From positions 2,591-66,590 of the forward strand of contig MU058039.1 in assembly GCA_013265495.1 (NCBI GenBank): a DNA stretch of 64,000 nucleotides, given 5' to 3'. A model generated the notes under the pieces. It was not told the origin of the DNA. It saw nothing but the letters and a program-made list of their open reading frames with translations, and did not search any database. This stretch comes from Vicugna vicugna. Lineage: Eukaryota. This document shows positions 23,482 through 61,072 of this stretch, piece after piece (positions within the stretch are counted from its first letter, which is position 1; each line of letters starts with the position of its first letter). The translations under genes were made by a program, and so were the position numbers.

Positions 23482-23706
<225 letters not shown>

Positions 23707-30582: not shown

Positions 30583-30597
30583 CTGGTACTCAATCAT
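30583..30597 (-). CDS. ZNF793: ZNF793 first coding exon portion (MIEYQ); whole exon 30628-30583
   Basis: cttcacag|gccacag...aaa ATG ATT GAG TAC CAG|gtaagt. MIEYQ is the N-terminus I recall for human ZNF793. The phase-0 join to KRAB-A is in frame; total CDS 1194 nt = 397 aa. Confidence 0.9.
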
Positions 30598-36325: not shown

Positions 36326-38263
36326 AGACTGTTTCAGCTTTTCACCCTTTTATTAAGCTAATGATCAAATCTTATTTTCCTTTCATTTGTGATTTCGTCC
36401 TGGTCCATCTTAATCACCAGTACTTTGACTTTAATTTCAGTGAAGAGCAGTTGCTAAAAGTAGCTTTTTGGTTTTGTCATTGTTATTGTGGTATTAGGTT
36501 TATTGAATGGTTCTACCAGGATTTTATAAGGCACAGGTTCGCGAAGTCAAACATGCCATGCCTAAAAAATACAGAACAAAGTAAAAAGATTCTTAGAACA
36601 CGATAACTTCCAGAACCAGTTTCTTTTCCTTCTGTGATTCATCTTTTTTTTCCCTAGCCTTACTGAGATATAATTGTGTAAGTTTAAGGTGTTCAATCCC
36701 CTGATTTGATACATGTACATATTGCAAAATGATTACCACATTAGGGTTAGTTAACATCTCCATCACTTCATGTAATTATCTTGTGTGTGGGGGGGGGGAG
36801 AACATTATTTTTAAGGATTTTCAAACACTCTCAAGGTTTACCCCTTCAGCAAAATCTTTTACAGTATCAGTTCAGATACTTACTCAGTAAGCTCTTTGTT
36901 TCCTGACCACAGGCCAAGGAACATCCATCCTAGCTGCCATGAGGTCAGAACAGATTTCCAGAAACCAGGCTCACACTTGGGATGCTGTTACAGATGGATA
37001 CGTCATTACATTTTCCAGAAAGAGCCTTAAAGGAAGCATTAGGAGAAATATGCATTAAATCCTTGGCAAAAGCAAGAGAAGCCACATCTTTAATAACATT
37101 TTATTTTACAGAAGTTTAACGCTTAATCCTTTCAAAGCACTTTCATTAATGTGAGGAACAATACAAAAAGGGGGAGGGAGGTTTCCAAAAGAGTTCTGAG
37201 GTAGGCTTTGGCCCTGAGGAACAGGAGGGAACTGGCTGCTCATCAGATGGGGTATGTCCTATGGGTGAAGTGTGTTCCCACTGTGCAGGATTGCAGCCTC
37301 AAATCCTTAACTCTCCCACTGCCTTCCTCTGCACTTTACAAGCCTCAGCACCAACTCCGTTTAAGCCTCCTAATCGTAGATACACCTGGTGTCTCCAATC
37401 TACAGCTCCCGGGCGTCCTTATAGCTATGATATCCCCATATGTCCAAATATGACCATCAAAGACCACTAGTCAGTGACTACAAAGGTCACTGATTCGTTC
37501 TGATTGCAGAATAGTGAATAACACAGATCCCAGATGGGGAACCCACACTGATCTCCAATGATATCCCAATGACTGGAGATCAATCAGTGATTCCCATTGT
37601 CCCACCTCCCCTGAAAATTATGACAGTCTCAGTCACTGATACCACCCTCCTTGATCCGTCTGTTCCACATTCCCTATCTACAAAAGTCCAGTCACTGATA
37701 ACCTCAGATCCCCCATCGATGAGCCAAAGGAAGTCTCAATCACTATTAGCCTAAAAGCATTTCTCCAAACATTGATCCTCATTGACCACCCTCATCACTG
37801 AACCTCAGAGTTTCCACAATCACCAGTTCTAGGTACCCAAACGTAATTTAGAACTTCCGATCACTGACTCCCTCAGTATTCTGATCACCGAGCCGCAACG
37901 CCATTCAAATCAGTGTCTTCGAAGAAACCCACCTGGCCTCAGACCCCGTAAGACCATTAAAAACTGACCCCCACGCACTCTTGTCAATCAAGAACTCTCA
38001 TTTATTGATTCCTGCATAACTCCCAACCCATTTTCTTCAGACACTGCCACTGACTCCCACAAATCCGCCACCACAGACTCCCCCACGGGGCTCAGACGCC
38101 CATTCACTTAACCGTCCAGTCCCCTCAGTCTCTGACCCTTACAGGCAACCATGACTGACCCAGTCGGGCCACCATAGTCGTCTGCTCACTATTACCCGGG
38201 TCCCGATTTTTGACTGTTTCTCACAGGGACCTTTCTCATTTTCCCTGCACAAGCGCCCATTAC

Positions 38264-38900
38264 CTGAAATGGGCTGTCGTACCCCGCCGCCTCACCACAG
38301 TACAAGCTCTTCTCTCTTCCCATCCCGAGTGACCGTGCGCAGACTCAGTCGCGACTTGGAGGCTGGCTGCCGCCCCCTGGCAACCTCCCAGAGAACGGGA
38401 TTCTGGGTTCCGGAACGTTAATGGCAGGTACGATGGCCGCGCCCGCTTGTCAGCCACTTGCTGGGGGCGGCCATGATTACGCCTGTGCCGTGCAGCCGAT
38501 GATTCGGCCCTTTGTTAGGCGATTGGGCCATTTTAGAACGGGGAGAAGCAAGTGTTCCTGAGTCCCTAAACACAGACGTCACTGCTGCTTTTCGCATCTC
38601 AGAAGCCCATACCTCCTGTGACCAGCAGAGCGGCTCCCTGACCCGGCAGCTGAGCTTTCTGTGTCTCCAGCAGCGCAAGCAGTGAGGTAAGATGGCCGCG
38701 TACGTTCGTACCGCTTCTTACGGGCAACCAGCGCGGCCATCTCCCCCGAGGAACTCCCCTCCCGTAAAGCAAGGTAAAACTTTTTCCTGGTGTGGGAGAA
38801 CGGCGAAGAAGAAAAGCTCTTCTCTCGGGGAGCCTGAGGCCCGGGAGGAAGAGGCAGGACTTCACCCAGTGGGCGGAGCTGCAAGAGTGGGCCAGTAGGA
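38264..38900. promoter_or_regulatory. ZNF793: CpG-island promoter and first exon of ZNF793, possibly bidirectional
   Basis: Densest CpG patch 5' of the gene; minus-strand donor cag|gtaatg at 38264/38263; five GGCCAT/ATGGCC YY1-like cores; plus-strand donor gag|gtaaga at 38687. Confidence 0.7.
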
Positions 38901-39944
38901 GGATCTTGAAAAGAGTATGTTGAAAGTGGGAACTTTGTCTCAGGTGGCTTGACCCTGTTGACTTTACAAATAAAACAGCCAACTTATGGGACCAAAAAAT
39001 GAATTTATTCCTAAATAGCAGAGACTCACAATTCGGGACAAGAAGTCACAGCAAAAACCATGGACAAGTCCAACAAACAAAGAGGAACTGTTATTTTACA
39101 GAGAAAAAGGAGGTAGTTGGGAGGGGTTGTTTTGAAGCAAAGTATGTTGCAGAAAAGTGAAAGATCAGAGTGAAGACGGCTTCTCATTGGCTGAGTTGCT
39201 GGGGTAGTGGATTTCCCGTGGGAGATGCAATGTACATCTCTTCTTGTTGGGGTCTGTGATTGATGATTTTTTCCTGTTGATTCTTCTGTCGGGGTCTCTA
39301 ATTGACAGTTCTTCCTGAAACACCTGGAGTGGTACTGCCTGAGATCTCCCTTTTCTGGCCTCCCTACTCCATTTGAGTGAGATTTTCCTTTATTACTTTT
39401 CGTGCTCCAGAAGCCCACCTGAAATAAGGGTGTGAGTGCAAGCAGTTTATTTGGGAGGTAGGGGATGGGTCAGTGAGACGGGAGGGATGGAAACCAACAG
39501 AGAGTGCTTCCATAAGCAGATTACCCCTGTGAGTAATGGGGGTTCAGTCCTGTGGGGAACTCTGATAGACTGTGTGAAAACCACCTCCAAGTTTTCCCAG
39601 TCAAGGGCTGATGAAGCTGAGATATTTATGTTATCTCTGGTTCCTCACTGTTGTGGGCTACTGCAGGGGCCTTAAAGCTCTAGCACTTTCAGCCTGCCTC
39701 ATGGGCAGGTCTCAGGCAGAGGCTGCAGGCGCTCAGAAAGAAGCCAGCCATCAGCATATGGGCATGGTGAGTGCCTAGGCAAAGTGGGGTACCAACAGCA
39801 TTCACCACAGTCCTGTTTTTAATAACCATCCACGCAGTGCTCTGCACATCACAGGCATCATTTTGGAACACCTCTAGAAATGATTGCCTTTTCCTATGAA
39901 AATAGCTCTCTAAAACAATTCTATTTGGTGATCATACCAACTGG

Positions 39945-40485
39945 TAAACAGCTCACCTCCAAAATGACTCCCAACGATTCCTGACGCCTGGCATTCACAC
40001 CCTTGTGTCATCTCCTTCCACATTGCAGGTCTGAGGTTAATAGTTTACAGTAGAAGTGATGGCCTGACGCTACTGAGATTAAGTTGTAAATGACACCTGA
40101 GCTTCTATTTTGGAGGTGTTCAAGCCCTTTCTCTCAACTTAACTTTGGGAGAAGTTGGTTGCCATATCATTGAGGACAGAGACCACCTATGAAGAGGCCC
40201 AGGTAGCAAAGAACTCCTGCCAACAGCCAGGGAGGAACTGATGCCTTATTATATCCAAGTGCCTTCTGATATCCATCTTGGAAGCAGGTCCTGCACCCTA
40301 GTTAAACCTTGGAATGCCTGCAGCCTCCACCAATGGACTGACTGCTACCACATGAGGGACTAAGTCAGAACCACCCAGCTGGCAGCTCCCAGATTCTCGA
40401 CCTTCAGAAACTGTGTGAGCTGTTAAATGTTTGTTTTAAGCCACTGGGTTTGGGAGTAATTTGCTATGCAGCAATAGGTAACTTG
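39945..40485 (+). mobile_element. MaLR (MLT1-type) solo LTR
   Basis: 'tccaaaatgactcccaacgattcc', 'gaggcccaggtagcaaagaact', 'aaactgtgtgag...gttttaagccact...gcagcaatag'. Confidence 0.75.
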
Positions 40486-42499
40486 GATGCTGGGGTAAAA
40501 ATGCTGTAATTGATGTCTCTGGATTCCTTAAACAAGTTCCTAAACTTGTGAGATTGTTCTGTCAAGTCAGAGGGGATTATTGGCAATTTCCTCTTATCTT
40601 GCATAATGGAGAAATTAAAGGCCTGTGGCTCTGTTAGATTTTTAAAATGTAACAGAGTTTAACAGTCTTGCCTGATTTGAATTAATACAAGTGGTTTATA
40701 TGACAGTATTTTGAAGTGATTATAGTAATTAATAAAAATGACTATTTGGAAAGTGCCTGTTACATGTCTGGCCTGTTGCTGGCTTGCTCACTTCAAGGAC
40801 TACTCACTCTCGCACCAGTCAGCTAGGCAAAAGGAAAGAGAGCCTTAGAGTGTCTTATGCTGGGAATTAAATACACTGCCTCAGAAATGACACATGTCAT
40901 TTGCTCCCACTACTCATTGAACAGTCAGCCAACCACGATATAAATACAGTCTTACCATAAGGTTGAGATGGGGAGAGCTAGAAATATTTAAGGAACAACC
41001 TTAAAGACAAACACAATGAAAACAGTGTTATCATCACGATTTCACAGAACGTGCACACAGAGTTAAGATGTCCAATCCATAATCACTCAGCTAGTAAGCA
41101 AAGAAGGAAGCAGAGCCAGGTATGTCTGTTTTATATAGAGGTAAAGGTTCATTACCATTATTATTAAATTTTTACTTCAGTGTATCTAAGGCACTGAAGT
41201 AGGGAACAAAGAGAAGACTGAGGTCTCCAGTAAAAATAAAGGGACTCAAGATGCTGAGGTCTTGGGTGGGGGGCGGGGGAGGAGGAGTACAGGTGGAGAG
41301 AGAAAACAGATAAAAGAAGAGTTTTTACAAAAGAGTACATACACACTGTATGTGAAGCTCAGGAACAGGCAAAACAAATCTATTGAGTTATAAATCAGAA
41401 AGCAATTGACTCTAGCAGTTGTTGGCTCTGAAGAGAATTTCTTGGAGTGATGAAAATGTTCTATATATTGTTTTGGGTGGTGGTTTTGTGCATCTATATA
41501 ATTGTCAAGACTCATCAAAGTTAACTTATGATTTGTGCATTTATTTTATGTACATTAAAACTTAATTTTTTGAAGAAAAAGAGTGTCAAGATTATTGAGT
41601 GATCATGTAGGCTAGGGAAAACGGAGACATGTGAAAGAAGTCACACAACTTTACCATCATCTGTGGAAAGATGGGACCCAGGCAAGGCCATCATAAACAC
41701 TATGGCTTGTGACAGTGCCCGCTCTGGGCAGAGGGGTGAGAGAAAGGAGCCCCAGGGATTCATGGTTTAGCGAATTAAAGGCTCTGGGCTAACCCAGCCA
41801 TAGTGACCATCAGCTCTTATTTACTCCCTGGGTTGGTAAGTCTCAGCCTATTGAACCAGTTGTGGTGGCCCTCCACACTGTCATCATTTAAAGGGATACT
41901 GGGCCCCAAATTTGGCCTAAAAGGAGGCACAACCGTTTCCTACTCTGGAGCAGAAAGGACTGTGCCCTGGCCTGAGTAGAAATAGGCCTTTGCCCTTGTA
42001 TGAGTGAAGACTGTTCTGGATCTCAGTGGGATGAGACTGTCCCCCCGGATCAAGGTAGATCTAGAGAGTAGTCTGGCATGAGCAGAGGCCACACCCCATC
42101 CTGTCCTGTCTTGAACTAGGGGTGGAGGTGGTAATTGGTGACACAAGTCTTAAAGTATACTTTCCAAAAAGTTAAAAATTAGAACTCTTACAGATATTCA
42201 GAGGTTCATTTAACTTAATAATGAGGGAATTAGCAGGATTGGAATTTTGGTTAAGAGTAAACAGGTATATAGTCAGTGGAATAAAGAATCTTGAAATAAG
42301 ATTGCAAAGTTAGATACAAAACTAATGTCCTACAGAGCAATAAAACCATGACCTGTAAGGTTATCTTTTCTCCACAGAATCAGTTTGTGTCTATAAAAAA
42401 TATATGAAATGTACCAATTGTCTCCAAGTAAAATTTATCTATATAGTCTTCATCCTAATTAGTAGTAAAAAGCCAATCAAACAAGGCACATTTTACTAG

Positions 42500-42702
42500 A
42501 GCATTGGGTTCTCAAACTGGTGCAGTTTTAATCTCCAGGGGGCATTAGACGACCTGTGGAGACAGTTTGTGGGGAAGGGGGATGCTACTGACACGTGGTG
42601 GGTAGAGGCCAGGGATGCTTCCAACCATACAGAGGACAACCTGGCACAACAAAGAATTATCTGGCCCAAAATGTGAACAGTGCTGAGTTTAGGAAACCTT
42701 CC
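42500..42702. mobile_element. MER20 DNA transposon
   Basis: 'gggtagaggccagggatgct...caacaaagaattatctggcccaaaatgtgaacagtgctgag'. Confidence 0.8.
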
Positions 42703-43889
42703 TCTAAAATGATTTGTTAGTCTTTGGGTGGGGTTTTTAGAGTATGCTCCAGTATGACTTTGAAAATGCACACAAGATAACACAGTATTGTTTCCTTCTT
42801 TCCCAGTTTTTGATCATTTTTCTTAACACAAAATTGACAAAGTGTTGATAATTATTGAATCTGAGTAATGAATACATGGTGATTTTTGTGTATGTTTGCT
42901 TTCCCCCCTACATTAAAAGTTTTTTTAAAAAAACCCAGTAGATTCTGGTCTTTCGCTTATGGTCAGTGCCATGTACCAGTGGCCACAGCTTAAGAGCATG
43001 TTTAGACATAATATTTAAGTGTAAAGATGTTTCTCTTTTATGACTTGATTCCCAAACTCTGCCCATCTTTCAAGTCCAGGGACTCTCAATTCTAGCTACA
43101 TCTTAAATTCAGTCAGATTTTAAAAATCCAATGATTGGGATCCACTCTCAGCAGTTCTGGTGTGGTTTTCCTGGGGTAAGGTTCTTTTTTATCTTTTTTA
43201 TTTTTGAAGTTTACCAGATTTGGGACATTGTGGACATGCAACCTAAATCAATTAAGGAACTTCATATTATGAACTTGGTTTGAGGTGGGCTGGATGGGTA
43301 ATACCTTGCAGGGCAAATGAGAATACACCCTGAAGGAGGGCATACCTATCTTATGCCTAGGCCTCCACACATAAAACATCAAGAACAACAAAATACTATT
43401 AAGAATCCCTTGGGACAACAAAACCACAACTGAATGCTAAACAGCCATCAAAAAACAAGACTGGAACCTAGCAAAAAAGACCTTCTGCGACTGGAAACAT
43501 AAAGAGGGAGCCACAGCAGGATGGTAGGAGGGGTGTGCTCGCGATATAATTAGGCCACATACCCCTGGGGTGGGCAACTCACAATCGCTGATAACCTAAT
43601 GGGAGTTCCCTTATTTGCTATTTTTGCTTTTCTCTTTCAATTTCTAGAAGCCCTCAACTGTGAGATCCTCAGGCAATATGAATCCATACATTACAGTGAT
43701 AGCTAGCCCTGTTTGTCACTGGTAGGTAGATAACATTGTACCAGTTACTTCCCATAAACCCTACCCCACCTCAGGTCTTTATTGTAGTTGTTCCTGTTTG
43801 GATTATGGGGTTCATTTTCCACTCTACCCTCTATATGTAGATGTAGTGTTATATATTGTTTATTTCTAATCAGTATTAATTTCCACCTT

Positions 43890-43983
43890 TTTCTTTTTGT
43901 TGTTAATGGAGGTCCTGGGGATTGAACCCAGGACCTTGTGCATGCTAAACACACACTCTACTATTGAGCTATACCCCACCACT
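43890..43983 (-). mobile_element. tRNA-derived SINE (Vic-1-like, short)
   Basis: 'ggggattgaacccaggaccttgtgcatgcta...ttgagctataccc'. Confidence 0.75.
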
Positions 43984-44899
43984 CTAATTACCACTTATTT
44001 TTTTAATGCCCTCTCCTGTGTCTCAGGGGCTGGAAATTTCATTTTCTAGACTACTTGCCACTACAGCGCTGACTATAATCTAGTTACTGCCAATGAGATG
44101 CTTTCATATAAGATAAAGTAAGAAGGGAGGTAGAGGCCTTTCTACTTGATATACAGATTTCAGCAGATGCAGGCTTCTAACTCATCAAATACTAGCAAAT
44201 TACAGTTTCCTGTAATTTCTGACCTCCAAATGACAGGTTGATTAGTGTGATTTTAAAACCAGTGGCAATCTCCTGATGCTTGGCCCTCTAGCCCTTCCAA
44301 AGATTTGGAAGCATCTAATCCCCTATATTGAATCTCCTTCTGTTTGAAATACCTAGGATACCTAGAGATATTTCTATTTTCCTGCCCTGAATCCTCATAT
44401 ATGGGTTCTACTGCTTCCATGATAGCTGATTAGTTCACAGATCTACAGTTTAAGAGTGGGCCCATAACTTTATATAGGACCATTTATGTTCCTTCCACCT
44501 TGCCTATTACATCTCAAGGAATAAGTATCACTGAGTGATAGAACAGGTTATCTAATGTGTTCTGAGCAGCCCAGCCTATAACTTAACTGATAATGCTTTC
44601 ATGTTGAAGTAATTTGTGTCACTTTACTCCTTGTTACAGAGGAGTGGTAAAAAAGTGATGGGCTATGGGTAATTAATAGATTTGCCAAAAATGGGCCCAA
44701 GTCTCAGGTATACTTGTCATGCCAGTATATTATGTATTTGTCATGTCATGTCTACAGACAAGGACTTCTGAATCTTTTTTTTTAAATCACACACAGAGAC
44801 AAAAGAAAATATAAGCCTACCTTATTTTCTGGATTTGGGCAATAAGTATAAAGTAGGTTAAAAGGTGGTAATGTAGTTGAAGAAGTAGAAATTACTTGT

Positions 44900-45992
44900 A
44901 TGATTCTGAACTAGAACAAATAGTCCTAAAATTTATATGCAACCACAAAAGACCCAGAATTACCAAAGCAATCCTGAGGAAAAAGAACAAAGCTGGAGGC
45001 ATAACCCTCCCAGACTTCAGACAATACTATAGAGCTACAGTAGTCAAAACAGTATGGTATTGGCACAAAAAAACAGACATATGGATCAATGGAACAGAGT
45101 AGAGAGTCCAGAAATAAACCCAAGCACTTATGGTCAACTAATCTTCGACAAAGGAGGCAAGAATACAATGGAGAAAAGATAGTCTCTTCAGCAAGTGGTG
45201 TTGGGAAAGCTGGACAGCAGCATGTAAGTCAATGAAGCTAGAACACTCCCTCATACCATACACAAAAATAAACTCAAAATGGCTTAAAGACTTAAACATA
45301 AAACAGGACACCATAAATCTCCTGGAAGAGAACATAGGCAAAGCATTCTCTGATGTAAATTGTAGCAGTGTTTTCTTAGGTCAGTCTCCCAAGGCAAAAG
45401 AAATAAAAGCAAAAATAAACAAATGGGACCTAATCAAACTTAGAAGATTTTGCATAGCAAGGAAAACCGTAAACAAAACAAAAAGACAACCAACGGAATG
45501 GGAGAAAATATTTGCAAATGATGTGACTGACAGAGGCTTAATTTCCAAAATATGCAAACAGCTCAATATAATTAAAAAAAAAACACTCTATCAAAAAAAT
45601 AAGCAGGAGACCTAAATAGACATTTCTCCAAGGAAGACAGATGAATAACAGGCACATGGAAAGATGCTTATCGTTGCTAATTATTAGAGAAATGCCGTTC
45701 AAAACTACAGTGAGGTACTACCTCACACCAGTCAAATGGCCGTCATCAAAAAGTCTACAAATAATAAAGGCTGTAGAGAAAATAATAAAAGGAAGCCCTC
45801 CTACACTGTTGGTGGGAATGCAAATTGGCACAGCCACTACTGAGAACAGTATGGAGGTTCCTTAAAAAACTAAAAACAGAGTTACCATATGATGTGGCAA
45901 TCCCTTTCCTGGGCATATATCCAGAAAAGACAAAAACTCTAATTCGAAAAGATACACTCACCCCAAAATTTATAGAAGCACTATTTACAGTA
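44900..45992 (+). mobile_element. Relatively young LINE-1 ORF2 fragment, truncated at both ends
   Basis: ORFs read [20 protein letters not shown]..., [10 protein letters not shown]...[10 protein letters not shown] and [21 protein letters not shown]; similarity stops abruptly after 'gcactatttacagta'. Confidence 0.92.
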
Positions 45993-48900
45993 TCCTTCCA
46001 CCTGTCTGCTGGACCACGGGAAGACACAGGCCACTGGCCCTTAATAGAGCACAAGACACAGCCTTCACCTGCGTCTGCCAACCGCCAAATGACGCTCGGG
46101 CTCCCCTACAACCCAGGTTACCTTCCAGTGGCAACTGTGCTTGTGATTATCAAGCTAGCTGCCCTCTGCATCGCCCAGGAGCAGTGGGAGGGTGGGTTTC
46201 AACTCTGGCAAACTGGGTTGTTAGATGAGAAGAGGGAGAGAATACTAGGAAGATGATGGGAGGTAGGAAGGTGAGCCAGACTTTCTCTCCTCCGGTTACC
46301 AATAACCCATATCTCTGAATATGTACACCATCTTTGACACCGCCACAGCAGCAGTAGCAGCTGAAGTGGCGAGACACAAAGTAGACTCAAATCCAGATCT
46401 AGGTGGATGGTAATGGATTCAACTGGGGGTGGGGAGAGGGAGGATGAATTCTGGTGTGGTGGGCGGCGATGAAGATCCCCAAATCCCCATTCACAACAAG
46501 GGTCATGTCGCCTGAAAATCTGTTGACCTTGAGGGTGGGTCCTATGCTAGTGGGCAGAGGAAGCCCATGCCCTATGCCACACGGGGTGGGGGACGCTGCC
46601 CCTCCCAGTGCCTCCCTGGATTCTGTTGAAAGCCCCTTCTCTCTGTCATTCTTCCTCCCAGCCCCCCAACTTCTCTCCCTCACTCTAATTCCGCTTGGTA
46701 ATCCTGGCCTGGCTTTCTTACTCTTGGGAGCCCCAACAATCCATCCATCGATCCATCCACTTGTGCGTTTATCCATCCGTCCATCCTTCCATCTATGCGC
46801 TGGACCACAAGAAAACACAGGCCACAGACCCTTTATAGAGCACTGGACACAGTCTTGGCCTAAGCCAGTCAATTGCCGAGAGGCACTCCCTTTGCATCAG
46901 AACCTAGTCGACCTGTCGCATAGCAACCTGCTGTGTTGTGCTCAGGTCCCGCGCAGTCGCAGTTGGAAGGCACTCTTCAACTCTACCAGTCTGGGTAGTC
47001 TGAGGCGAGAGGGCCCAGGGAACAGAGGGGAGTTGATGAGAGGTAGGTAGGGTGCATCAGTCTTCCTCTTCCCATGTTACCGACATCCCAGATCTCTCTG
47101 GATGTCACCATCTTTAATGCCGCCTGCACTGACACCACCACTGTCACAATGGCAGCTGGACCTGGTGGCCAGACGCTCTGTAGGCTCAAATTCAGATCTG
47201 GGTTGGTGGGAATGCTGTCAAATGGGCAGAAGTGGGGACGTCGGGGGCGGGTCATGAAATCTGGTGCAGAGGACGGTGAAGAAAATCCCTAGTCCCAGCT
47301 TGAAGTGATGGTCCCTGTCGCCTGAAAATCCATTGACTCCTGAGAGTGGTACCTCCCCTAGACATGGGCAGAGGAGGCCCATGCCCTGGGGCCACAAGAG
47401 GTGGGGGGTGCCTGCTTCTCCCAGGAACTTCCAGGAATCTGTTGAAAGTCCCTACTCCCAGCCATTCTTCCTCCCCTGCCCTACAACATCTCTTCCCCAC
47501 CCCCCTTAATCTTGGCTTGGTAAGCCTGGCCTGGCAGGGAGCCTCAACAATACATCTATTCATCCATCCATCTTTCCATCCATCCATCCATCCATTTATC
47601 CCTCCATCTATCCGCTGGACAACTAGAAGACACAGGCCACAGGCCCTTAATAGTGCATTGGGCACAGCCTTCGCCTAACCCTGCCAACCACCAAACTGCA
47701 CCCGGTTCTGCCAAAGCCTAGCCGACAACGTATCGCACAGCAACTGGGCTTGTCACTGTGAAGCCAGTTGCCAGCTCACGCGCAGTTAGTGAGAGGTCTT
47801 CAACTCTGGGAAGCTGGGTTTGGGGGAAGGGGCAGCGGGGAGAAGACAGAGGGGAAGTGCTGGGAGGTAGGGTGGTGGCTGGACTTGGTGGTGAGATGCT
47901 CTGTGGACACAAACCCAGATTGGGGTGTGAGGTTATGGTGTCAAATGGGAGGCAGGGGAATAAAATCTGGTGCGATGAAGATCCCTAGTTCCTGCTCTAA
48001 GTTATGGTCTCTGTCACCCGAAAATTCATTGACCCTTGAGAGCTGCACCTCCCCTACACAAGGGCAGAAAAGGCCCAGGCCCTGGCGCCACACGGGCCAC
48101 ACAGGCGCGGTCTCTGCCTCTTCCAGTGCCCTCCGGGAGTCAGCTGAAAGCGCCTTCCCCCAGCGGTTCTTCCTCCCGCTCCCACCAGCCTCTCTCCCTA
48201 CCTCCTTTAATCCTGCTTGGCAAACCTGGCCTGGCCGGGCTTTCCTCTACTTTCGGGAGCCCAACAATCCAATTTTCCAGTCATCCATCCATTGACCCAT
48301 CCATTTATCCATCCGTCTTTCCGCTGGACCTCTGGAAGCCACGCCACAGGCCCTTTCAAAGAGTGTGGGACGCAGCTTTCACCCGCGCCTTCCAACCGCT
48401 AGCATCCTGGCTCCAGCAGTGCTTAGTCCTCCGCTTGCGCAGCTGGAGGGTGGGGTCAACTCCAGCGCAGTGGGTTTTCAGGGAGGAAGAGGGAGAGGAC
48501 AGAGGGAGATGGTGGGAGGTAGAGAGGGTGCGCCAGTCTTCCTCTCTTCAGGTTACCGATGTCCCAGATCTCTGCGGCAGTGGCTAGACCTAGTGGCGAG
48601 ATGCAGACACTGCCAGGTGCCTCTGTGGACATAAATCCGGATCGTGATGAGTGGGAATTGTGTCAAACGGGAGGAGAAAGGGGATGAAATCTGGTGAGGC
48701 AGGCAGTGATGAAGATCTCTCAATATCTACTGGAAGTGATAGTTGTATCGTTGGAAAATCCATTGACTCCTGAGAGCGGTACCTCCCCTGGATGTGGGCA
48801 GAGGAGGCCCATGCCCTATGCCACACGGGGACCCACATTGGGTATGGTCCCTGCCTCTCCCAGTGCCTTCCAGAAATCTGTTCAAAGTCCCTTCTCACCG

Positions 48901-51400
48901 TTTTCCTCAGCTCCCCAACCATTCTCCCCCCTCCCTTCACCTCCACCATCACTATCACCCAAAGGACATTCCCTGGAGTATCTGGCCAAGATGTTGAGGG
49001 TGCTGCCTCCTCTGTGTGGGAGAACCTTCCTCCTTGGACAGAGGTGATGATGCTTCCGCAAAGTGTCCCAGGACTCAGGGCTCTTTCCTCAGTAGTTGTC
49101 CCACTGACAGATTCCTGTCCCTCTTTGTCTTGTCCCCCCCATGGCTGGCCTCCCTTTGACAAAGCAGGGAAGCCATGTGGTGCTTCTCTCCTTCTGCCCT
49201 ACATCTGTGGCCTCAGAGAGAGGGCCAGGGGAGGGCTTGTTCTAAATTCCTGCTGTCCATGGTGGCTAGTCTCCTGATGCCTTTCTCCTGCCTTACTCAT
49301 GTATTTCTCCCCAGTCAAGTGCCCTAGGGAGCAGGAAATCCGGTCTTCATCCTACATGAAGGTCCTGAGACATGAGTTTGACTTGCTGATGGAAGAGCCT
49401 GCCCAGTGGGCTCCCCATTCCCTAGGTGGCCTGCCTGGTGTGGTCATATTCATTGGGCAAGTCTTTCTTGGCCTCCTATCCTGACAAGGATCTTCCTCCT
49501 CCTGGAGGGAAACATCCAAGCCATGATATAAGGCCATGTTTTGTTGAGGAAGAAATGAGGCCTGCATTGAACCAGCCAGCTAAGAGATGCCCTTGATTCT
49601 CTCCAGACAGGAGTTGGCAAGCAGGGCCCAGTCGGAGCCCCTTATTTCTGTCTAGAAGTACCCTGGGCATCATTTGGAGAGGTGGGCACATGAGGTAATC
49701 GGCTGTGTCTGAAGGCCTGGTGTTCAGGGCAAGAGGCAGCAGTATCTGGAGGAAAGACATATGTCCAATTCTGTAGTAAGAATTAAGCATGTCTGGGGGT
49801 TGGCCTGGCTGTGTTGATTTCCAGGCAAGGCATCTTAGTCTTTACTGTGCCTTAAGACAGACAGAAGAGCTTGGTAAATTGCCAGGATTCCAGACTTTGA
49901 AGCCAGCTGTTTCTGAATGTTGGCTCAGACATATACCACTGGTGGGCACTTGGGTCACTGACTAAAATTCTGTGTCAAGCCATTGTCACCTCTGCAGTGG
50001 TGATTATCAGGAAAGGGCTCTAATGGTTCTTGAAGGAACTAAAGTGAAGAAGAAGCAGTTTATTCCAGGCCCCGGTGATTCTCACTATCAGTTTTTTCAA
50101 AGGTTTTCCAGGCTCTGTCCCCTCCCATATCCCAGGTCCTGGTGGTGGCAGCACCCACCTCCTGGTACACCTGCTAAAACTCATCAGACCAAAAGGGAAA
50201 AGCAGTACCTTTCATTTGATGTGGATCATGCCACAAGGCAGTTCATTGATAGGTACAGGGGAGGTACAAACACACATTCATCATAGACACAGAGGGAAAT
50301 GCTTAGTCTGGACGGGAATGAAATCTCATCGATGAAGTTAAAAACGAAACAGAACTAACCAAGGAAATGTAAATGGGGTATGTCCAAATTCAGATCAGGG
50401 TGGGTGGGAAAGGTGTCAAATCGGGGCGGGGGGGGGGTGATGAAATCTAGCGAGGTGGGGGGAATGAAGGTCCCCAAGACCCCACTAAAGTAATGGTTGT
50501 GTGAACCGAAAATCCATGGACGGTGAGACCAGTACCTCTCCAAGACAGCCCCAGGGACACCCTTAACACCATCCGGAGGAGAGACACTGTTGCTAGGCTT
50601 CTGAACCTGTTTAGTCAACCTGACCCGGCTTTCCTCCACTTTCAGGAGCCCTAAATATCCATCTGTCCATCCTTCTATCCTTCTATCCATATATCTGTCC
50701 TCCCATTCATTCACTGGACTGGACCCCCCGGAGAAACTTTCACAGCTTTCGCCTGCCCCTGGCCTCCGCGGGAGGGCGATCCCGCACCCCCAGCGCCTGG
50801 AGGACTCCAGCTTAGTCACCCTGGTGATCACTGTGATGCGCACAGCGCTCTTTGCCTGCACATGCGCAGTTCAAGGCCAGGTGCGACCCTAGGACGCTGG
50901 GTGAAGTGGTGGTGCTGGGGAGAGAACAGGGCGGATGTGTGGGTAGGGAGGACCCTGTGCCCACCTTCTTCTACTCAGATTACCGAGATCTCACACATCT
51001 GAATCGCTGCTGCTCCTGCCACCAACACCAGCATGTCCGCCACCCTGGTGGAGGCTGGACTTGGTGACTAAACACAGACACACCGGGCACCTCTGTGGAC
51101 TCATTTTTGGGTCAGGGTGGATGCGAATGCTGTCACATGGAGCGGGGAGGGCTGGAATATGGTGAATTGACGGTGATTAATTTCCCCGAGTCCCCGCTGG
51201 AAGTGACGGTATCCACTGAAAATCTGTTTTCCCTGGTACCAGTACCTCCCCTAGTTGTGGACAGAGGAGGCCCCTGCCTCGGCGCCATATTCCAGGGGAC
51301 AGCTCTCTGCCTGTCTCAGCACCTTCCAGGAGATTGTTCAACGTTCCCCCTCCTGGCCTGTTCACCACCCCCACCACCTCCTGGGCATGGCCGGAGGGTC
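45993..51400. repeat. Diverged GC-rich tandem array of ~710-815 bp units (4 contiguous units, an interruption, then ~1.5 more)
   Basis: The anchor 'ctggac' followed by 'gaagacacaggccac'-like text recurs at ~46009, 46800, 47615, 48324, and in degenerate form at ~50719. 'aaatctgg'-like anchors recur at ~46447, 47257, 47963, 48688, 50443, 51158. Units also share 'gaaaatc..ttgac', 'gggcagaggaggcccatgcc' and (TCCA)n tracts. Confidence 0.9.
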
Positions 51401-52414
51401 AGGCTGTGGAGGGCACTACTTCCTGCCAGGTGGGGCACACCGTTTTCCTGGCACCTTCCTCCTGGGACCAGGACAATAGGAATATAATGAAGAGGAACAC
51501 ATGCAGGAGGTACAGAAATGTAAGTCTGACATATCCATCCTAGAGAGAATGGAAAATGGAGAGGAAAAACTGCTTCAGAGGCAGCTTTGAGGCTCCTTGG
51601 ACCAACAATGACCCCAAGCCATGCTTTGAACCCCAAAAAGAACCCCAACAATTGTCATGAATGAAAACCATAACCAGGTCCACAAGAGGAAATGCTCTGA
51701 AGGCCAACCCAAGATCCGAGAGGCGGGGTGGGGGGGCAGTGTGAGGAGAAAAAGCAGTAAAGGAATGATTTCAAAGGAGCAAACCTCATCCCAAGCAGCC
51801 CTGAAGTTTAACATCTCAGTGAGAACAGTTGAAGCCAGATTAAGTGTGCATGAACAAGAACATGCAGGTAAACTGGAATCGTAAATCTACCACTGAAAAG
51901 TGGAAAGGCAATTGCAGATGAAATACTCAGAATGATGAATTAGAAGGAGAAGTACAGTCTAGGTGTAGTACATATATCTCATGATGTAGATTGTCCTATG
52001 ATTTGGAATGAAAGTCAAGGTATGTTATATGTAGCAAGAATGTCAACACAGACACCTGCCTAGACGTTCAGAAATATATGCTGAGAAGGAAAACTGATGT
52101 AACTGATTCCACAGAAGCTTGGCATTGACATTCTTTCATTAGGAGACCTTCTTCTTAATTATGCCAAATCAACACCATTTGAGGTCATGAAAGACAAGAA
52201 GATACTGAAATTTTAGAGGCTGGAGGCAGCTGAGGAGAAATTCCTTCCTACTTCTATGCTAATCTAGGAGCAGAGAACAAGACATTAGTGGAAAAACAGT
52301 GGATTTGCCATAAGATCTGCAGTTGAGTTAAGAAGGTTGTCTCAAAGTTACTTTCCTGTACCTGATGTTTGCATTATGGTTAGGTAAGATTTGGGGTTTT
52401 TTTTCCCCCCTGAC

Positions 52415-53226
52415 AATAGATTGAAAGTAGAAACCAACAGCAAAAGGAAAATGGAAAATTCACTATGTGGAAATTTTAAAACACACTTTTGAAAAACCAG
52501 GGAGTCAAAGAAGAAATCAAAAGGGAAATCAAAAATTATCTCAAGACAAACAAAAAATACAAAATATCAAAATCATGAGATGCAGCAAAAACAGGCTGAG
52601 AGGTAAGTTTACAGCAATAAATGCCTATATTAGTAGAGAGGTAATATCTCCAGAATAAAACCTAGGTTTACACTTCAAGGAATTAGACAATGAAAAACAA
52701 AGCCCAGAGTTAGAAGAAGGATGGAAATAATAAAGATCAGAGCAGAAATATTTTAGAAATAGAGAATAGAAAAATCAAGGAAATTAAAAGTTGGACAAAC
52801 ATTTTGGCAGACCAGATAATAATAAATAAAATTAAATAAAATATAAAGGAAAGAGGAGACATTATAACTGATGCCACAGAAATAAAAAGGCTCATAAGAG
52901 ATTACTATACTTATACACCAGCAAACTGGGTAACCTAGAAGAAATGAATAAATTCCTAAAAACATACAAGTTACCAAGACAGAATCAAGAAGAAATAGGA
53001 AGTTTGAATAGATGTGTAAGTACTAAGGAGTTTGAATTAGTAATCCAAATCCTCCCAAGAAGGAAAATCCCAGTAACAGATGGCTCTACTGGTGAATTCT
53101 ATCAAACATTGACAGAAGAATTAATGCCAATCCTTCTCAAACTCTTTCAAAATTTGAAGAGGAGGGTAAACTTCCATCTTTACCCTGATACCAAAGTCAA
53201 AGACGTCACAGGAAAAGATAACTACT
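52415..53226 (+). mobile_element. LINE-1 ORF2 fragment
   Basis: ORF 52944-53228 reads MNKFLKTYKLPRQNQEEIGSLNR...PVTDGSTGEFYQTLTEELMPILLKLFQ. Confidence 0.9.
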
Positions 53227-53227
53227 A

Positions 53228-53620
53228 GGGTTCAAAATGGCCAATTAGAGGGCCATGAACCCACCTCCTCCCATGGATACAATAAATCTACAGCTACATA
53301 CAGAACAATTTCCTCTGTAAGAAACCCCAGAACTAGCTGAGTGACTTGTACACGTTGAGTGAATGAATAAAAATCCACATTGAAACAGGTAGGAGAGGCT
53401 GAGACGCAGTCTTGCCACAGAGACCACCTCTGGCACAGTGACCCACAGTCAGGAGGGAACTGACAAACCGGAGCTTCTCCCTGAGGAGTGAAGGGTTTGA
53501 ACTCCACATCTAGCATCCTAGTTTTTAAGACCTGTACCTGAAAGATGAGGTCCCCAAATCTCCAGCTTTGAAAGCCAGAGGGGCTTGCCTCTACAAGAAC
53601 CATAGGGGGCTTCCTGAACC
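53228..53620 (+). mobile_element. Probable LINE-1 5' UTR fragment
   Basis: Starts 'gggttcaaaatggcc' (YY1-like L1 start); 'aagggtttgaactccacatc...agctttgaaagccagaggggctt' resembles laurasiatherian L1 5' ends. Confidence 0.5.
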
Positions 53621-53729
53621 AAAGGCAACTCCAGACTCTGATGCTGAAGCTGTACAGTCAGAGACAAGGTCCACCCCCTGATGGCTGTGGTTAACACCAC
53701 AGATTTCAAAGGACAGTGTCCTTTGCAGG

Positions 53730-54085
53730 GTGCTATGAACTGAATTGTGCCACCCCCAAATTCACATGTTGAAGCCCTGGTGCTTCAGTGTGACTGTATC
53801 TGGACGTAAGGCTTTTGGGAGGTCATTATGATTAAATGACGTCATAAGGGTGGAGCCCTAATCCAATAGAGAAATAAGAAGAGAAATGGAAGATCGTCCT
53901 CTCACTCCATACACATGCACCAAGGAAAGGCCACGTGAGAACACGGCACGGAGATGGCCAGGCAAGAAGTCAGCCCTCATATGAACCCACCCAGGCTGAC
54001 ACCTTGATCTTGAACTTGCCAGGCTCCAGAACTGTAAGAAAATAAATTTCTGTTTAAGCCACCCAGTCTATGGTATTTTGATTAG
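53730..54085 (+). mobile_element. MaLR solo LTR (MLT1A/MST-like)
   Basis: 'tgctatgaactgaattgtgccacccccaaattcacatgttgaagccct...aataaatttctgtttaagccacccagtctatggtatttt'. Confidence 0.8.
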
Positions 54086-54534
54086 ATAGGATTCCATGGA
54101 GCTCTTCATTGACTCCATGGCCCCCAAGTGCTGACATAAAGCTTGGATAGGAAAAGACTCCTAGGTAAAAATAAACTAAAAAATGAGGCCACACCATATA
54201 AAGATGTTAATCACTCTTATACTAGGCATGATTATAATAAGATAATAATGATGATGTTAATAATATATGTTTCTATGGGGTGGGGGAAGGGTAGGGGTAT
54301 AGGAATAACCAGTCTTTTCAGAGAGAAGTTTTACAACCACACTGTAACTACTCTAACTGGAGCATAATTGTATACAACACTATAACTAAGACTATAAGTG
54401 ATCATACTAATAAAGACCTTTCAGAGACAGCATTGCATGAGGGTTAATATAATAGACATTGTAGTCAGCTAGCCTGGGTTTGAATTCCCTTGAGCTGTTT
54501 ACTGGCTTTGTGACTTTGAGCAAGTTCCTCGATT

Positions 54535-54628
54535 TTTTTTTCCCCTTAGTGGAGGCACTGGGGATTGAACCCAGGAACTTGTGCATGCCAAGTATATGCT
54601 CTACTACTGAGCTATACCCCCAGCCCCC
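54535..54628 (-). mobile_element. tRNA-derived SINE (Vic-1-like) inside a MIR
   Basis: 'ggggattgaacccaggaacttgtgcatgcc...actgagctataccc', flanked by MIR-like sequence. Confidence 0.75.
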
Positions 54629-54954
54629 AAGCTCTTTAATTCTTAATGACTCAGATGCTCATCTGTGAAATGGGAATAATAGTTGAGCCAATATTAAGCA
54701 TTACTGTGTGGATTGAAATGAGCTTATAGATTTAAAATCCCTGGAACAGGGACTGGTGCACTCAACAAAATTTGTTTATCATCATCATCATCATAATCAT
54801 CACTATTAGCACTGTGTACTGGGTTCTATGCCATTTAAACCTCACAGAGACCTTGTAATGTGTGGATCACTTCCCTCTGGTTTTACAAGATTGTCATCAT
54901 TCCTAATAGAGGTATCAATTATAATGACATTAACATCAATGCAAATAATCACAA

Positions 54955-55380
54955 TGTCAGCATGGCAGCCAGCCTCCAAGATTTCCCTTAATGAATCTTG
55001 CCTCCTAGTATTCAAACTTCTGTGTAGTCTTTTCTTATAATGAATAGGGTTGACCAGTGTAACCAATCCAACCACCATATTTGAATACACTCAAGAAGCC
55101 TTAAGGGGCCCACATGGTAAGGTATTTAAAAGTCTCCTGCCAATAGTCATATAAACTAACTTGGAATCAGAGCCCACAAGCCCCAGTCAGCCTTCAGAGG
55201 ACTGCATAGCTCTGGCCAGCATCTTGACTACAACCTCGTGAGAGTTCTTGAGCCAGAACCACCCAGCTAAGCTGTTCCCAGATTTCTGGCCCTCTGAAAC
55301 TGTAAGAAAATAACTGTTTCCTGTTGTTTTAAGCCATTAAGTTTTGGGTAATTTGTTACATAGCAATAGATAGCTAATGT
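54955..55380 (+). mobile_element. MaLR (MLT1-type) solo LTR
   Basis: 'gcagccagcctccaagat', 'gagccagaaccacccagctaagctg', 'tttaagccattaagttttgggtaatttgttac'. Confidence 0.75.
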
Positions 55381-56504
55381 ACTCAGCAATGTATTATAGA
55401 TATGCTGTTTTCCAGAGTGCAGGGGAACCCACCCTGTGTTCTCACAATTGGCATTAATGATAATTATAACTTTAATATAATTCAAATGATTATATCAATG
55501 TGGTGCTTACATTTTCCTGTTTCATAGATGTTTACAGAGAACACAAGCAAAGCCCATTATTATAATAAATATTAAAATAGCACAATAATAATATCAATAA
55601 AAGAGTAATCTAAATTGTGCTGATTTCACAGAGGTGAAAAAAAAAAACCAAAAAACTGCCCCTAGAAGCGAGGCTATTGTTGTGTTAATATAATGCAAAC
55701 AACAACCAGAAGGTGGCAGAAGCAGAAGAGACACAGGATTTCTTAGCATCAGAGTGGAAGTTATTCATGTTGTCTTCGTAATTAGAGGCGTACGACAAAT
55801 AATGGCAAGGATTATGTACTAGTTATAAATTATAATTGTGTTACTTATACTTCAAATCAATAAGAATAGATTAATTGTGGAATTAAGTAAAACAGTAAGT
55901 GGTATGGCATGGCGTATGGTATGGAAAGTGGGGTGAGGTGAAGTGGGGTACGCTAGATAAGTCTCTCCAGGCAAAGGCCCAAAGGGGAACAAGTTTCCTT
56001 GATGTTAAGAATAGCCAGAACCGGGCTTGTCTGACAAATAATAAAAATGTTGACCGGCTACAACTGCTGGTTCTCCAGACCCTACACCGCCTTTTATTTC
56101 AGTTATAACTTTTCACTACAAACATTAAATGTAGACACGTAAAAATACAAATAACTGAAATTTTATGTAAAAAGCTGGGATACAAAATATAAAAGATACA
56201 TAATCTAATATATAATCATATAGTATATATATCATATAAAATTGAAATCTTATTTTATTGTAATAAGGAAAATACAATAATGATACTATAATGTACTATA
56301 TATTATAAATACACAATATTACTATAGTATATAATGATATGCAATATAAAATTATAACTAATGTACAAACCTAATTATGTATAGATATTTATAACCTAAC
56401 ATCTAATAAATAATCTTTTAGCAAACATAATTTATCACATAGTAAAACATAATACTTTTGAGATTCATCCATGTTGTAGCTTGTGCCAATGAATATTTCC
56501 TTTT

Positions 56505-56620
56505 GGCGGGGGGAGTAATTAGGTTTATTTATTTATTTTTAGAGGAGTTACTGGGGACTGAACCCAGGACCTGGCGCATGCTAAGCATGCACACTACCAC
56601 TTGGGCTATATCCTTCCCCC
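56505..56620 (-). mobile_element. tRNA-derived SINE (Vic-1-like) with TSD, inside an old L1
   Basis: Flanked on both sides by gaatatttcctttt. Confidence 0.8.
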
Positions 56621-59600
56621 AGAATATTTCCTTTTTATGGTGTCATAAATCAGCATATTTATGGCTGAGTAGTATTCCATTGTAGAGATGTACTACAATT
56701 TGTTTAATTATTCACCCACTGATGGACATATGGATTGTTTCCAATCTTTTTGCGATCATGAGTGAAGGTTCTGTGAACACTTGAGTATATACATGATTTC
56801 TCATTTCTCTACGGTAAATACCTAAGTGTGGGATTGCTGTGTTGTAGGCAAGGATATAATTAACTTTATAAGAACTTGTGAAACTTTCATCTGGAGTGGA
56901 TATACTATGTTACCTTCCCACCAGCAATGCATGGAACTGTGCATTGCTCTGCATCCTTGCCAGGTTTTGGTACTACGTGATTGACTGCTGTTCTAATAGG
57001 TGTGTGGTGGTATGTCATTATGGTTTTAATTTGCATTTTCATGATGATTAATGATGTTGAGTGTCTTTTCATCAACTTATTTTCCATTTGTATCTCATAC
57101 AGTCATATGGATAAATCTCAAATACATCACATTAAATGAAAGAAGTCAGACTCAGAAAGAGATACATACTTACATATATATGGATACATACATTTATATG
57201 ACACATGAAAACAGCAAAATTATAGACACAGGAAACAGATCAGTGATTTCGAGGGGTTGAGAGTGGGTACAGAGAATGGCTAAAAAGGAATAGGAGGGAA
57301 TTTAGGGGAGTGAAGGAACTGTTCTCTTGATTGTGGTGTTGATTACATGATTGTATGCAGTTGTCAAAACTCTCGGAACTGTACACTCTAAGAGTGACTA
57401 TTACTGTATGTAAATTATACCTCAATAAATCTGACTTAAAATATCTCAGTACTATGATATTATGTTATAATAAATATAAAAGAGAAATAATGGGAAGCAA
57501 TTTACCGTTAAGATAACACGTTTCCCTCTGTGGGGTTTGGGCAAAGTCATACAGAGAGGGTCAGATGCTCACGTCCACCTATAACTGGTAATCTTATTAA
57601 CAACAGGACACTGTCATCGGTCTCCACTAGTCCACTCCCCTCAAGTGACTCATAGTAAATCACTTCATCCTCCTTAATTCTATTTTACAGGTGAAGCAAC
57701 TGAGGCTCAAGAGAGGTTGCTGGGCATCAGCGTTGACATCAGGATTTTAATCCATGTCAACAGCTCTCACTATTCTGCTTGCATCACTCCTCGTGGAGTA
57801 AACGGGAAGCTGTTTGTGATCTCCTGGGACCCCAGATCCTGCCCAGCCTACTCCAGACCAACAATTCTCTGGAGTGTGTCTCATCCCTTCTCCATCCAAG
57901 GTTCCTGACCATGCAACGGTGGGGACTTGGAGAAGCAATGCTGGAGGACTTGCAGTAGCCACACTGAGTGGCCTCATGAAGCAACGTGTGCCAAGGGTAA
58001 TCGGCAGACAGTGTTAGTGACAGCCAATAGGGAAATAGCAGATATTACCAGGATTTAATGTAAGAGCCACAGATACTGTATTAGTACTGGATTAGTGGGT
58101 AATGGGCATCAAAAGGCTTTGTGCTGGTTAATGGGGGTCTTACACAGATGGCTAATGTGGAGTTTATGGTGCCTTATCAGTCATTACCCTTACCTGGGGA
58201 GAGGGAAGCAGGTTAACGGCACACACCAGTGTTCAGAGAGAGGACTGGGGGCACCACCACATACTGTGTTGGGGATGGTTACAAACACAGCTAGGTGGGG
58301 TCATGGAAGATAACTGGAAACGATCATTGTGATGGACAGCTAATGGAGGGAGATGCAAGTCATCCTGCTAGAGGTTTAATGGAAGTATCAGGAGATATTA
58401 TTAAAAGCTGGATTAGGTGGGGTATATATACCATGGTTCCCTACTCCGAGGATTGTAATAAGTGGTCGTTAGTCACTAGTTAGGTGGAAGTGGGAATAAA
58501 TGGGGAGTAGGGAGGCGACAAGACTGTTTACAAGTTGGGTAAAGTAACATACACTATGCTGGAGGTAACTGGAGAAGCCGTATAATGAGAAGGTATCTAG
58601 ACACTACTTCTTGGAATTAATAAGGAATGATAAACATAGTGATGGAGTCAGGTAAAAGGGGGATAATGGAGGGTGTCCAGACCTTGTGCTGGAGTGGGTT
58701 AAGAAGGGGTAATGGAACAATCTCCAGACTCTCCTGAGGGGTCTGCTAACACTGTCCTAAGCTGGGGGACAGTGGTGGGTCACAAGACATTAACTGAAGC
58801 TGCAGTGCCAAATGAGGGAAAAGTGGGTAGTGGGTCACCATAGTGTTCTAAGATAGGGAAGGGCATACGGTGGTTCACCAGATACTGTGAAGGGGTGAGA
58901 TAAAGGGGAGCTGACGATGGATTAGACGTGGAGCTAAGGTGTGGTAACGGGATATGTCATTACACACTGCCCAATTTGGGTGAGCGGATTACAGGAGAAT
59001 CCTTAGTCCTGCCCCCTCAACCAGGTTGTCACCATCCTTGATTGGGATTGCTGTGTTGTAGGCAAGGATATAATTAACTTTGTAAGAACTTGTGCCAATG
59101 ACTGACCTGGAGGAACCACTTTGCTGGTGCCAGTTTGTCCACTCAGCAGCTGAACATTCAATCAGATCCTCTCACACATCTGTGAGGCCACTGCTGCCCA
59201 ACTCTTGGTTGTGCACCAAACTTCCAAGGAAGGCAAACCTCTCTCTACTCTTGACCTTTCCATATTATTGGCTTTGGGTGTACCTGTCAGAGCATGATAA
59301 GCAGGTCTGTAGGTCAGGTCATGGGGTGGGCAAGACCCTGTCAAGGTGCAAGTAGGGTAGGGCAGGACTTGTGTGCTGGGGCAGAGTGAGGGGGCTCTCT
59401 TGTGGTCACTTTGAAGCTGACTGTGGTATTTCGGAATCACTGAAGGGAATCCTGGAACATCAAACATGTATGTGGGATTTCCTGTGCCACAGTTCTCCTT
59501 TCTTTAAATGAGTTGGCACCAGGCCAAAAGGTTTACAATTATGTTACAACTTTCAGGCCAGGAAGGAGGCACAGGCCAGGTAAAGACTGGGGGTGGAAAA

Positions 59601-60535
59601 ACCTGGTGTGTTTTAGGCAATTTGGTTTTCCTCTTGGAGCATTTTATGCTGCAATGTAGAAAGGATCAAAGGGAAGTCAAGGGACGAGTAGGGTCAACAC
59701 TCCACAACGTGCATCATGGAATGACTGCTGTATGTCAGGCATAGGTCTAGGTCCACAGTGGGGACAAAAGAGGGAAAAACATTCTAGAGTGCAAATCACA
59801 GACAAATAAGTTAAATATACAGGGTGTCATGGTAGTAAGTGCTATGGAGAAGGATAAAGGAGGAAGAGGAAGGGGCTGGAATTTTAAGCCAGGTAGGCAG
59901 GGAAGGGCAGGGAAGGCCTCTGTGAAGAGATGCCACTGGAAGAAAAATACGAAGGAGGAAACCACAAAGATATAATGAAGAACTGTGCTCTTTGAAGAGG
60001 GCATGGCAATTGCAAAGGCCCCAAGGCAGGACCTAATCTGATGTGATTGAGGCACATGGGGGAGAAGGTCCTTGAGTGCATGGCATGAAGTTGGAGAGAA
60101 AACAGTGAAGGCATGTTGGAATTTGTTTTCGATGAGTTTTGCTTTCAATTTGTTACTATCATCATGAAGGTCAGGTCATTAAGGAAGAACCACGACAGTA
60201 AAAGGGAGACTGACGTGAGGAGTTGATGGAGGTGACCTGAACAGTCTCTCTTTAGAAGCTTTCCTGAAGGTAGTGGGAGTTCAGTAAGACCCTAAGCTGG
60301 GGGCTAAATGAGGCTCAGCGAGTCTGGGAGATAAGGGTAGTGAGCAGATGTGGTGTTTAGCACTAACGGGCAGTCACAATGCAGTTACAGGGCTCAGAAG
60401 ACAATGTGCTGTATGAGAGCTGAAGACACTACACTCTACTGGTGGCTTAGAAGGTGGGTGCCACTCATGGTGCTAGAGGATAGCGGAGGAGGCAACATAC
60501 ACTCTTAGGTTTATGTCTGTATACATAAATAATTT

Positions 60536-60541
60536 TTTATT
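60536..60541 (-). terminator. Candidate polyadenylation signal (AATAAA) of the ZNF585 gene
   Basis: tttatt on the plus strand ~530 nt downstream of the stop, at the edge of the AT-rich 3' UTR-like stretch. Confidence 0.5.
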
Positions 60542-61072
60542 GTGGCATCTCTTTCTTGATAAAAATATTCCGTAGGGGATTGGATACGTAAAACCATGTT
60601 AGATTCAACAGAAGAATAACACCCAAAATTCAGTTAGACATTGTGTTCTGCAACAAACACCTCACAGAACTGAGGGTTTATCACTCTCATATATATTGTG
60701 TCATTCTACCATTCAATTGTTGGCACTTTACCCACTCCAGAGTAAACAGGATTATCATCAACATGACTTCACGTAATGCTTCGTATGCAGAATTTGGTAA
60801 CAGTGTTCCATTATATTTTTCATGAGAAGGCTTCTTCTAATGTACCAAATTGACCAAGTTCCTTCTCAATATGAAAGCCCAAGGTTTGCTGAGACTAGTG
60901 ACAATGTGGGAAGGGGCTCCTCTCACTCAGGGCCCTTCTAGAGGTCCTCTTCTGTAGTGTGACATTCTGATGCAGTATTTCTGCTTACGATAATATGCAT
61001 GTTTTCTGTTGCGTGAATTCAGTGATGTAAAGCCAGATCTGATCTCACTGAGGTTTTCTCATTCTGTTCCTC

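Follow-up and report, generated by a model that had tools for sequence, protein, structure and literature searches.

A decayed tandem array of GC-rich units with promoter-like traits upstream of ZNF793 in Vicugna vicugna

We describe an old tandem array in a 64,000-nucleotide (nt) window of the Vicugna vicugna genome (contig MU058039.1 of assembly GCA_013265495.1, forward-strand positions 2,591 to 66,590; coordinates below count from the first base of this window). The array occupies positions 45993-51400 upstream of ZNF793, a KRAB zinc-finger gene, and consists of ~5.5 worn copies of a 0.7-0.8 kb GC-rich unit, for a total of 5.4 kb. We classify it as a decayed local tandem duplication with promoter-like traits. 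It is apparently undescribed: a literature search, with most subscription papers outside its reach, found no description of the array or of a non-primate SST1 repeat. The copies stand in tandem, are strongly diverged, form a star-like tree, exceed their surroundings in CpG content, carry recurring splice-like sites and lack coding or RNA-family signal; a promoter origin and a strand, an age in years and whatever function the array may have are inferred. The chances seem to us about even that a promoter/5'-exon cassette of ~0.75 kb, rich in GC and formerly also in CpG, was duplicated in tandem and that the array is its fossil.

The tandem array is real. Comparison of the window with itself by BLAST gave 10 off-diagonal unit-unit matches within 45991-51353, the best of which covers 933 nt at 68.8% identity with an offset of 791 (E=8e-91), and the off-diagonal periodicity implied by the initial annotation is thus present. 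CTGGAC anchors at 46009, 46800, 47615 and 48324 are spaced by 791, 815 and 709 bp, and a further anchor lies at 50714. Together with the self-matches, these positions bear out the earlier claim of at least four contiguous units at those spacings. We refer to the four as U1-U4 (Table 1). A profile built from them alone recovers a near-full unit (U6; E=2e-63) and a half unit (U5; E=7e-26 and 4e-7) further right, in agreement with the ~1.5 additional units proposed earlier. The interruption between the two groups is also present, at a length of ~1.43 kb and not the 1.3 kb first given. Pairwise unit scores exceed the best of 30 shuffles each in 15 of 15 pairs, including the weakest (U1-U6, 29 vs 23). 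The U1-U4 profile finds no match to the unit in the spacer or right flank, and no other copy below E=5.8 in the whole window. Within the array, Tandem Repeats Finder, which has a period limit of 500, picked up nothing beyond a short simple repeat of 4 bp. The initial annotation had further described a kept order of motifs within the unit. The order holds, but not every unit carries the full set: the pyrimidine-tract/ttacc block is missing from U3 and the TCCA tail from U4 and U6, and of U5 only the 3' half is left. By eye the spacer seemed to contain a MIR element, but a profile made from 8 MIR-like copies of the window did not bear this out.

Divergence between the units is high. U1-U4 are 68-71% identical to one another, with Kimura two-parameter (K2P) distances of 0.37-0.43 and a transition/transversion ratio of 1.3, and U6 lies at K2P distances of 0.56-0.65 from them. 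The unit tree is an unresolved star with end branches of 0.19-0.23 substitutions/site and with U6 outside. Distances between units exceed that among 7 copies of short interspersed elements (SINEs) in the window (0.28, with rough SINE boundaries), which we take to be camelid, Vic-1-like elements. Sliding identities between units stay at or below 0.86 and thus give no hint of recent gene conversion. The star tree and the 68-71% identity therefore point to a single old duplication burst with no later homogenisation, which agrees with the initial view of the array as old, diverged and no longer homogenised. Taking ~2e-9 substitutions per site and year as the mammalian rate would place the U1-U4 burst very roughly at 60-100 million years ago, an age that CpG decay inflates. 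An event of this age would lead one to expect orthologous units outside camelids.

Base composition and splice-like sites provide the sequence evidence for a promoter-like ancestry. GC content of the units is 55.5-57.3%. Their ratio of observed to expected CpG (CpG o/e), 0.33 in U1-U4 and 0.40 in U5-U6, exceeds the values for spacer (0.09) and right flank (0.11). Of 5 units, 4 retain the CpG in the GCGCAG motif. GAGGTAG, one of the longest runs without any change among U1-U4, scores 7.8, 9.3, 8.0 and 4.9 as a plus-strand splice donor in these units; its U6 counterpart is weak (5.1). A homologous plus-strand acceptor follows ~400 nt past the donor in all five units (scores 6.0-9.5), and U4 holds the region's strongest acceptor-like site (48551). 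The scoring matrix is the same for the units and for ZNF793, whose predicted splice sites score 7.5-10.5 as a control. Plus-strand donors scoring at least 7 number 11 in U1-U4, vs a mean of 4.5 and a maximum of 9 in 30 shuffles, though the homologous copies are not independent. The block containing an AT-rich box ranks with the best-preserved ones (0.78); read on the minus strand, this box gives TATAAA/TATTAA (TATAAA at 46832 in U2). The only full match to an RFX X-box is in U2 at 46915. A minus-strand intron of 85-90 nt per unit was considered and dropped, with donors below 7 and acceptors of 0.9-4.5.

We favour descent from a promoter cassette because CpG stands above the flanks, plus-strand splice sites recur and sequence words of the region occur in RNA runs with a reproductive label. 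The ancestral unit would have begun with upstream elements and a TCCA tract, an AT-rich box and a CpG-bearing GCGCAG core, and would have continued with a first exon ending at the GAG|GTAG donor, an intron of ~400 nt, an acceptor and a short second exon. An older duplication may have given rise to the U5/U6 lineage before a single burst of unequal crossing-over produced U1-U4. Homogenisation would then have stopped, after which the copies would have drifted and lost blocks and the left side would have been cut by the L1 junction described below. If active today, the units would most likely provide weak alternative starts or exons for a reproductive-tissue non-coding RNA, transcribed from the plus strand and away from ZNF793. 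Such a history would make the array a clean fossil of the amplification, and subsequent freezing, of a promoter-sized cassette in KRAB zinc-finger clusters. The array would also be a candidate for the origin of non-coding RNA in reproductive tissue, beside a highly conserved placental gene.

The RNA evidence comes from the shares of sequence words of 45993-52400 found in sequencing runs, with part of the region present in 15 of 21 runs. Four RNA runs, all from one study and labelled reproductive system, contain 0.33-0.34 of the sampled words, a region-wide share that carries neither position nor strand. In five further runs, which come from two studies and are of unstated kind, the share is 0.96; this speaks for presence only, and one of the five may be the source of the assembly. 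The small shares in the remaining six (0.05-0.12) count as no evidence.

Searches for coding sequence or a structured RNA were negative, which bears out the earlier statement that the array has no consistent open reading frame (ORF): no ORF family or Pfam family was found. Among six read-through frames of 45993-52400, Pfam gave only one chance match (E=0.084), and seven Rfam matches at E up to 5 all fell far below the gathering score. Folding of 8 conserved pieces gave z between -1.2 and +0.4 in 8/8 cases, no better than shuffles. An array of small-RNA genes (microRNA, small nucleolar RNA or small nuclear RNA) was thus rejected, with no Rfam family near threshold and 0/8 pieces with z below -1.3. 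In a protein search with one U6 frame, 1 of 22 candidates matched, at 96% identity; as an unnamed colinear Logan product, that is, a translation of near-identical sequence, it is not evidence of a gene. Exact-pattern scans of metagenome and viral contigs returned 0 matches and were uninformative, as expected for mammalian DNA.

The units could also be tandem copies of an old, unrecognised interspersed element of long terminal repeat (LTR)-like or MER type, which we regard as very unlikely. The unit length would suit a solo LTR, and SST1 itself has been described as retroelement-derived (PMC8382927). Against this, no dispersed copy occurs in the 64 kb, the array contains only one plus-strand AATAAA, no terminal repeats or target-site duplication were seen by eye and no coding relic was found.

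Several results weigh against a promoter cassette. The array contains no 400-bp CpG island and its units contain no full NRF1 site. The plus strand has no canonical TATA box, and the AT-rich box and the splice sites lie on opposite strands. Acceptors show no enrichment (9, against a mean of 6.8 and a maximum of 12 in shuffles). The unit is unrelated to the ZNF793 promoter, which gives no profile match, and Pfam searches of the plus frames of 38700-45990 and 51400-61000 gave no match that would indicate a downstream gene body. The position-free RNA signal, from a single study, could reflect DNA carry-over, read-through or an origin in the spacer or right flank. In 40 neutral simulations at matched identity, the observed number of invariant runs of at least 6 nt (7, vs 4.1 +/- 2.1) was reached in 4, and the longest invariant run (7) was matched or exceeded in 35. 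The variance of conservation was reached in only 2 of the 40. Constraint is thus marginal at best. The initial annotation had suggested an independent regulatory array, which is close to the reading that we prefer, but the case for a present-day function is thin.

A functionless, satellite-like relic would account for this near-neutral pattern almost as well. By this explanation, which we consider possible but doubtful, an arbitrary GC-rich segment was multiplied by unequal crossing-over in a recombination-prone zinc-finger cluster and then decayed neutrally, and the RNA is read-through from the divergent ZNF793 promoter or DNA in the libraries. Large unit-specific deletions, the lack of any family, ORF or fold and the disagreement in strand between motifs are consistent with it. 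So is the possible entry of transcripts from outside: in the CpG island of ZNF793 the plus strand carries a strong donor (38687, score 10.3), which could, judging by sequence, start a divergent RNA running towards the array and whose placement is that expected for a divergent RNA like human ZNF793-AS1. A neutral relic fits less well with a unit CpG o/e 3-4x that of the spacer and right flank, with a donor-like 7-mer among the longest invariant runs and with the rarity of the observed conservation variance in simulation. Were it correct, the array would be a mere annotation footnote.

The initial annotation placed the array between ZNF793 and ZNF585. The first assignment stands: the gene ~7 kb to the left, on the minus strand, has a zinc-finger region 91-96% identical to named placental ZNF793 proteins. 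To the right lies a gene with an 815-codon zinc-finger exon at 61073-63520, which we take to be ZNF585, although a protein search gave no close named match and the label is unconfirmed. In 38000-63500, ZNF793 has its 5' end turned towards the 3' end of this ZNF585-like gene. In the human order, the ZNF585A 3' end points towards ZNF420 and the ZNF793 5' end towards ZNF570; the arrangement therefore suggests an inversion, of which a breakpoint would fall in the same interval as the array. At its left edge the array abuts an element that we take, from its translation, to be L1. Two fragments of this element, at 222-666 and 45556-45995, lie in opposite orientation and are 75% identical, and the copy at 222-666 continues as L1 past the point where the other is cut at U1. 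Units may therefore have been lost at the left edge, from an array that was once longer.

Other features of the window were also noted. Just right of U6 there is a short exon-like piece (51472-51530, plus strand) whose donor at 51520 scores 9.2; no downstream domain was found. A G-rich degenerate stretch at 57500-59000 resembles by eye the first intron of a KRAB zinc-finger gene or a relic promoter, but an nhmmer comparison of 57900-59000 with the first intron of ZNF793 gave no match to confirm a relationship. Leucine-rich repeat (LRR) exons at 6019-8370 on the plus strand lie tail-to-tail with ZNF793, with Pfam LRR matches in the second exon only, and presumably belong to a PRAME/LRRC14-type gene.

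Table 1. Units of the array and neighbouring features in the window.
Feature	Position	Strand	Remarks
Unit 1 (791 bp)	45993..46783	+	left edge abuts cut L1
Unit 2 (815 bp)	46784..47598	+	most complete unit
Unit 3 (709 bp)	47599..48307	+	~100 nt missing around pyrimidine-tract/ttacc block
Unit 4 (638 bp)	48308..48945	+	3' end cut; TCCA tail missing
Spacer, 1.43 kb	48946..50374		no match to U1-U4 profile; CpG o/e 0.09
Unit 5, 3' half only	50375..50701	+	profile match
Unit 6, near-full	50702..51400	+	most diverged, most GC-rich (60%); TCCA tail missing
Presumed L1 ORF2/3' region	44900..45992	+	stops abruptly at first base of U1
ZNF793 CpG-island promoter	38050..38900		CpG o/e 0.71; ~7 kb from array; no unit-profile match
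Predicted ZNF793 5' untranslated exon	33838-33960	-	splice-score control
Predicted ZNF793 start exon	30565-30640	-	splice-score control
Predicted ZNF793 KRAB A/B exons	22900-23640	-	splice-score controls

The initial annotation had also proposed a possible link to SST1/MER22 (NBL2), with reference to arrays of this macrosatellite within the human 19q13.12 zinc-finger cluster. The distal human array lies between ZNF383 and ZNF875, not beside ZNF793 or the ZNF585 3' end, which speaks against such a link. That SST1 arrays occur in the human 19q13.12 cluster is confirmed by the literature: monomers there are 2.4-2.5 kb long with 64% GC and a 400-bp CpG island, arrays hold 14-154 copies at >97% identity and partial monomers are scattered nearby (PMC3018141). 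In one account, the chromosome 19 array is the ancestral SST1 site in humans, and SST1 units that are active display two opposed RNA polymerase II peaks, like promoters or enhancers (10.1101/2021.07.12.451456).

One way to read the link is that the array is a pre-primate homologue of SST1/MER22, with the 0.75-kb unit as the ancestral block and about three units making up the primate monomer. We think this unlikely. The shared cluster, with ZNF793 confirmed, and the ancestral, promoter-like character ascribed to the chromosome 19 array would suit it, as would an array that looks old enough, at the substitution rate used above, to predate the primate split; that U1+U2+U3 amount to 2315 bp, near monomer length, is suggestive only. 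Comparison by eye with ~390 of 1591 characters of a gibbon SST1 consensus (PMC8382927) revealed 3-4 short G- or pyrimidine-rich resemblances, mostly to U6, in the same order as in the units. The best of these, scored by hand (match 2, mismatch -3, gap -7/-2), reaches ~20, whereas 100 random G-rich 382-mers have a median of 23. The longest word common to this part of the consensus and the units is 10 nt, where the chance mode is 10-11, and the best-kept mid-unit words were not spotted in it by eye. NBL2/SST1 has moreover been described as primate-specific, with promoter activity (PMC6009586).

A fuller version of the link, to which we give a similarly low probability, would make the array a surviving non-primate relic of the SST1 ancestor, an early placental promoter cassette of ~0.75 kb that was multimerised into primate SST1/MER22/NBL2/TTY2. 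SST1 would then be derived from a host promoter and would not be a primate-born, retroelement-derived repeat. A true link would also tell where the repeat at the breakpoints of common human Robertsonian chromosomes (PMC12657243) came from, and comparative genomics could put that origin to the test.

A comparison of the array with SST1 reveals a resemblance in kind and a difference in every measure. Both consist of head-to-tail, GC-rich, non-coding units within a KRAB zinc-finger cluster (PMC3018141, PMC12657243, 10.1101/2021.07.12.451456), with simple repeats inside the unit, promoter-like character and no known ORF. Units measure 0.7-0.8 kb (638-815 bp) here vs 1.4-2.5 kb in SST1, GC content is 55-57% vs 62-64% and the 400-bp CpG island is absent. 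The ~5.5 copies at ~70% identity likewise differ from the copy number and homogeneity of the chromosome 4/19 type. The term macrosatellite-like fares no better, since macrosatellites have units of several kb in arrays of up to hundreds of kb (PMC5687341). Because length, copy number, homogeneity, GC content and island all fail, we assign the array neither to SST1 nor to the macrosatellites. Low identity by itself is no bar to kinship, as the Y subfamily, one of three within SST1, is only ~75% identical (PMC12657243). The proposed link thus holds for location in a 19q13.12-type KRAB zinc-finger cluster and is otherwise unproven.

A further parallel is provided by the ZAV macrosatellite at the KRAB gene ZFP37 (PMC3018141), which is also a GC-rich tandem array upstream of a KRAB zinc-finger gene whose transcription leads away from the array. 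A proposed regulatory role and expression in testis add to the likeness, the RNA runs here being labelled reproductive system. ZAV differs in its 5.3-kb CpG-island units, which number 3-31, lie no more than 2 kb from the gene and are absent from mouse (PMC3018141). The vicuña array, in comparison, is 7 kb from the promoter, short in its units, old and decayed.

Human MAGEA4 has tandemly duplicated alternative promoters/first exons. Clustered 5' cassettes have also been described for protocadherins and chelicerate Dscam (PMC4835542). Unlike these systems, the array has no common downstream coding exon that we could find, and use of its units as first exons is putative. Like them, it is built of repeated sub-kilobase units with a recurring donor site.

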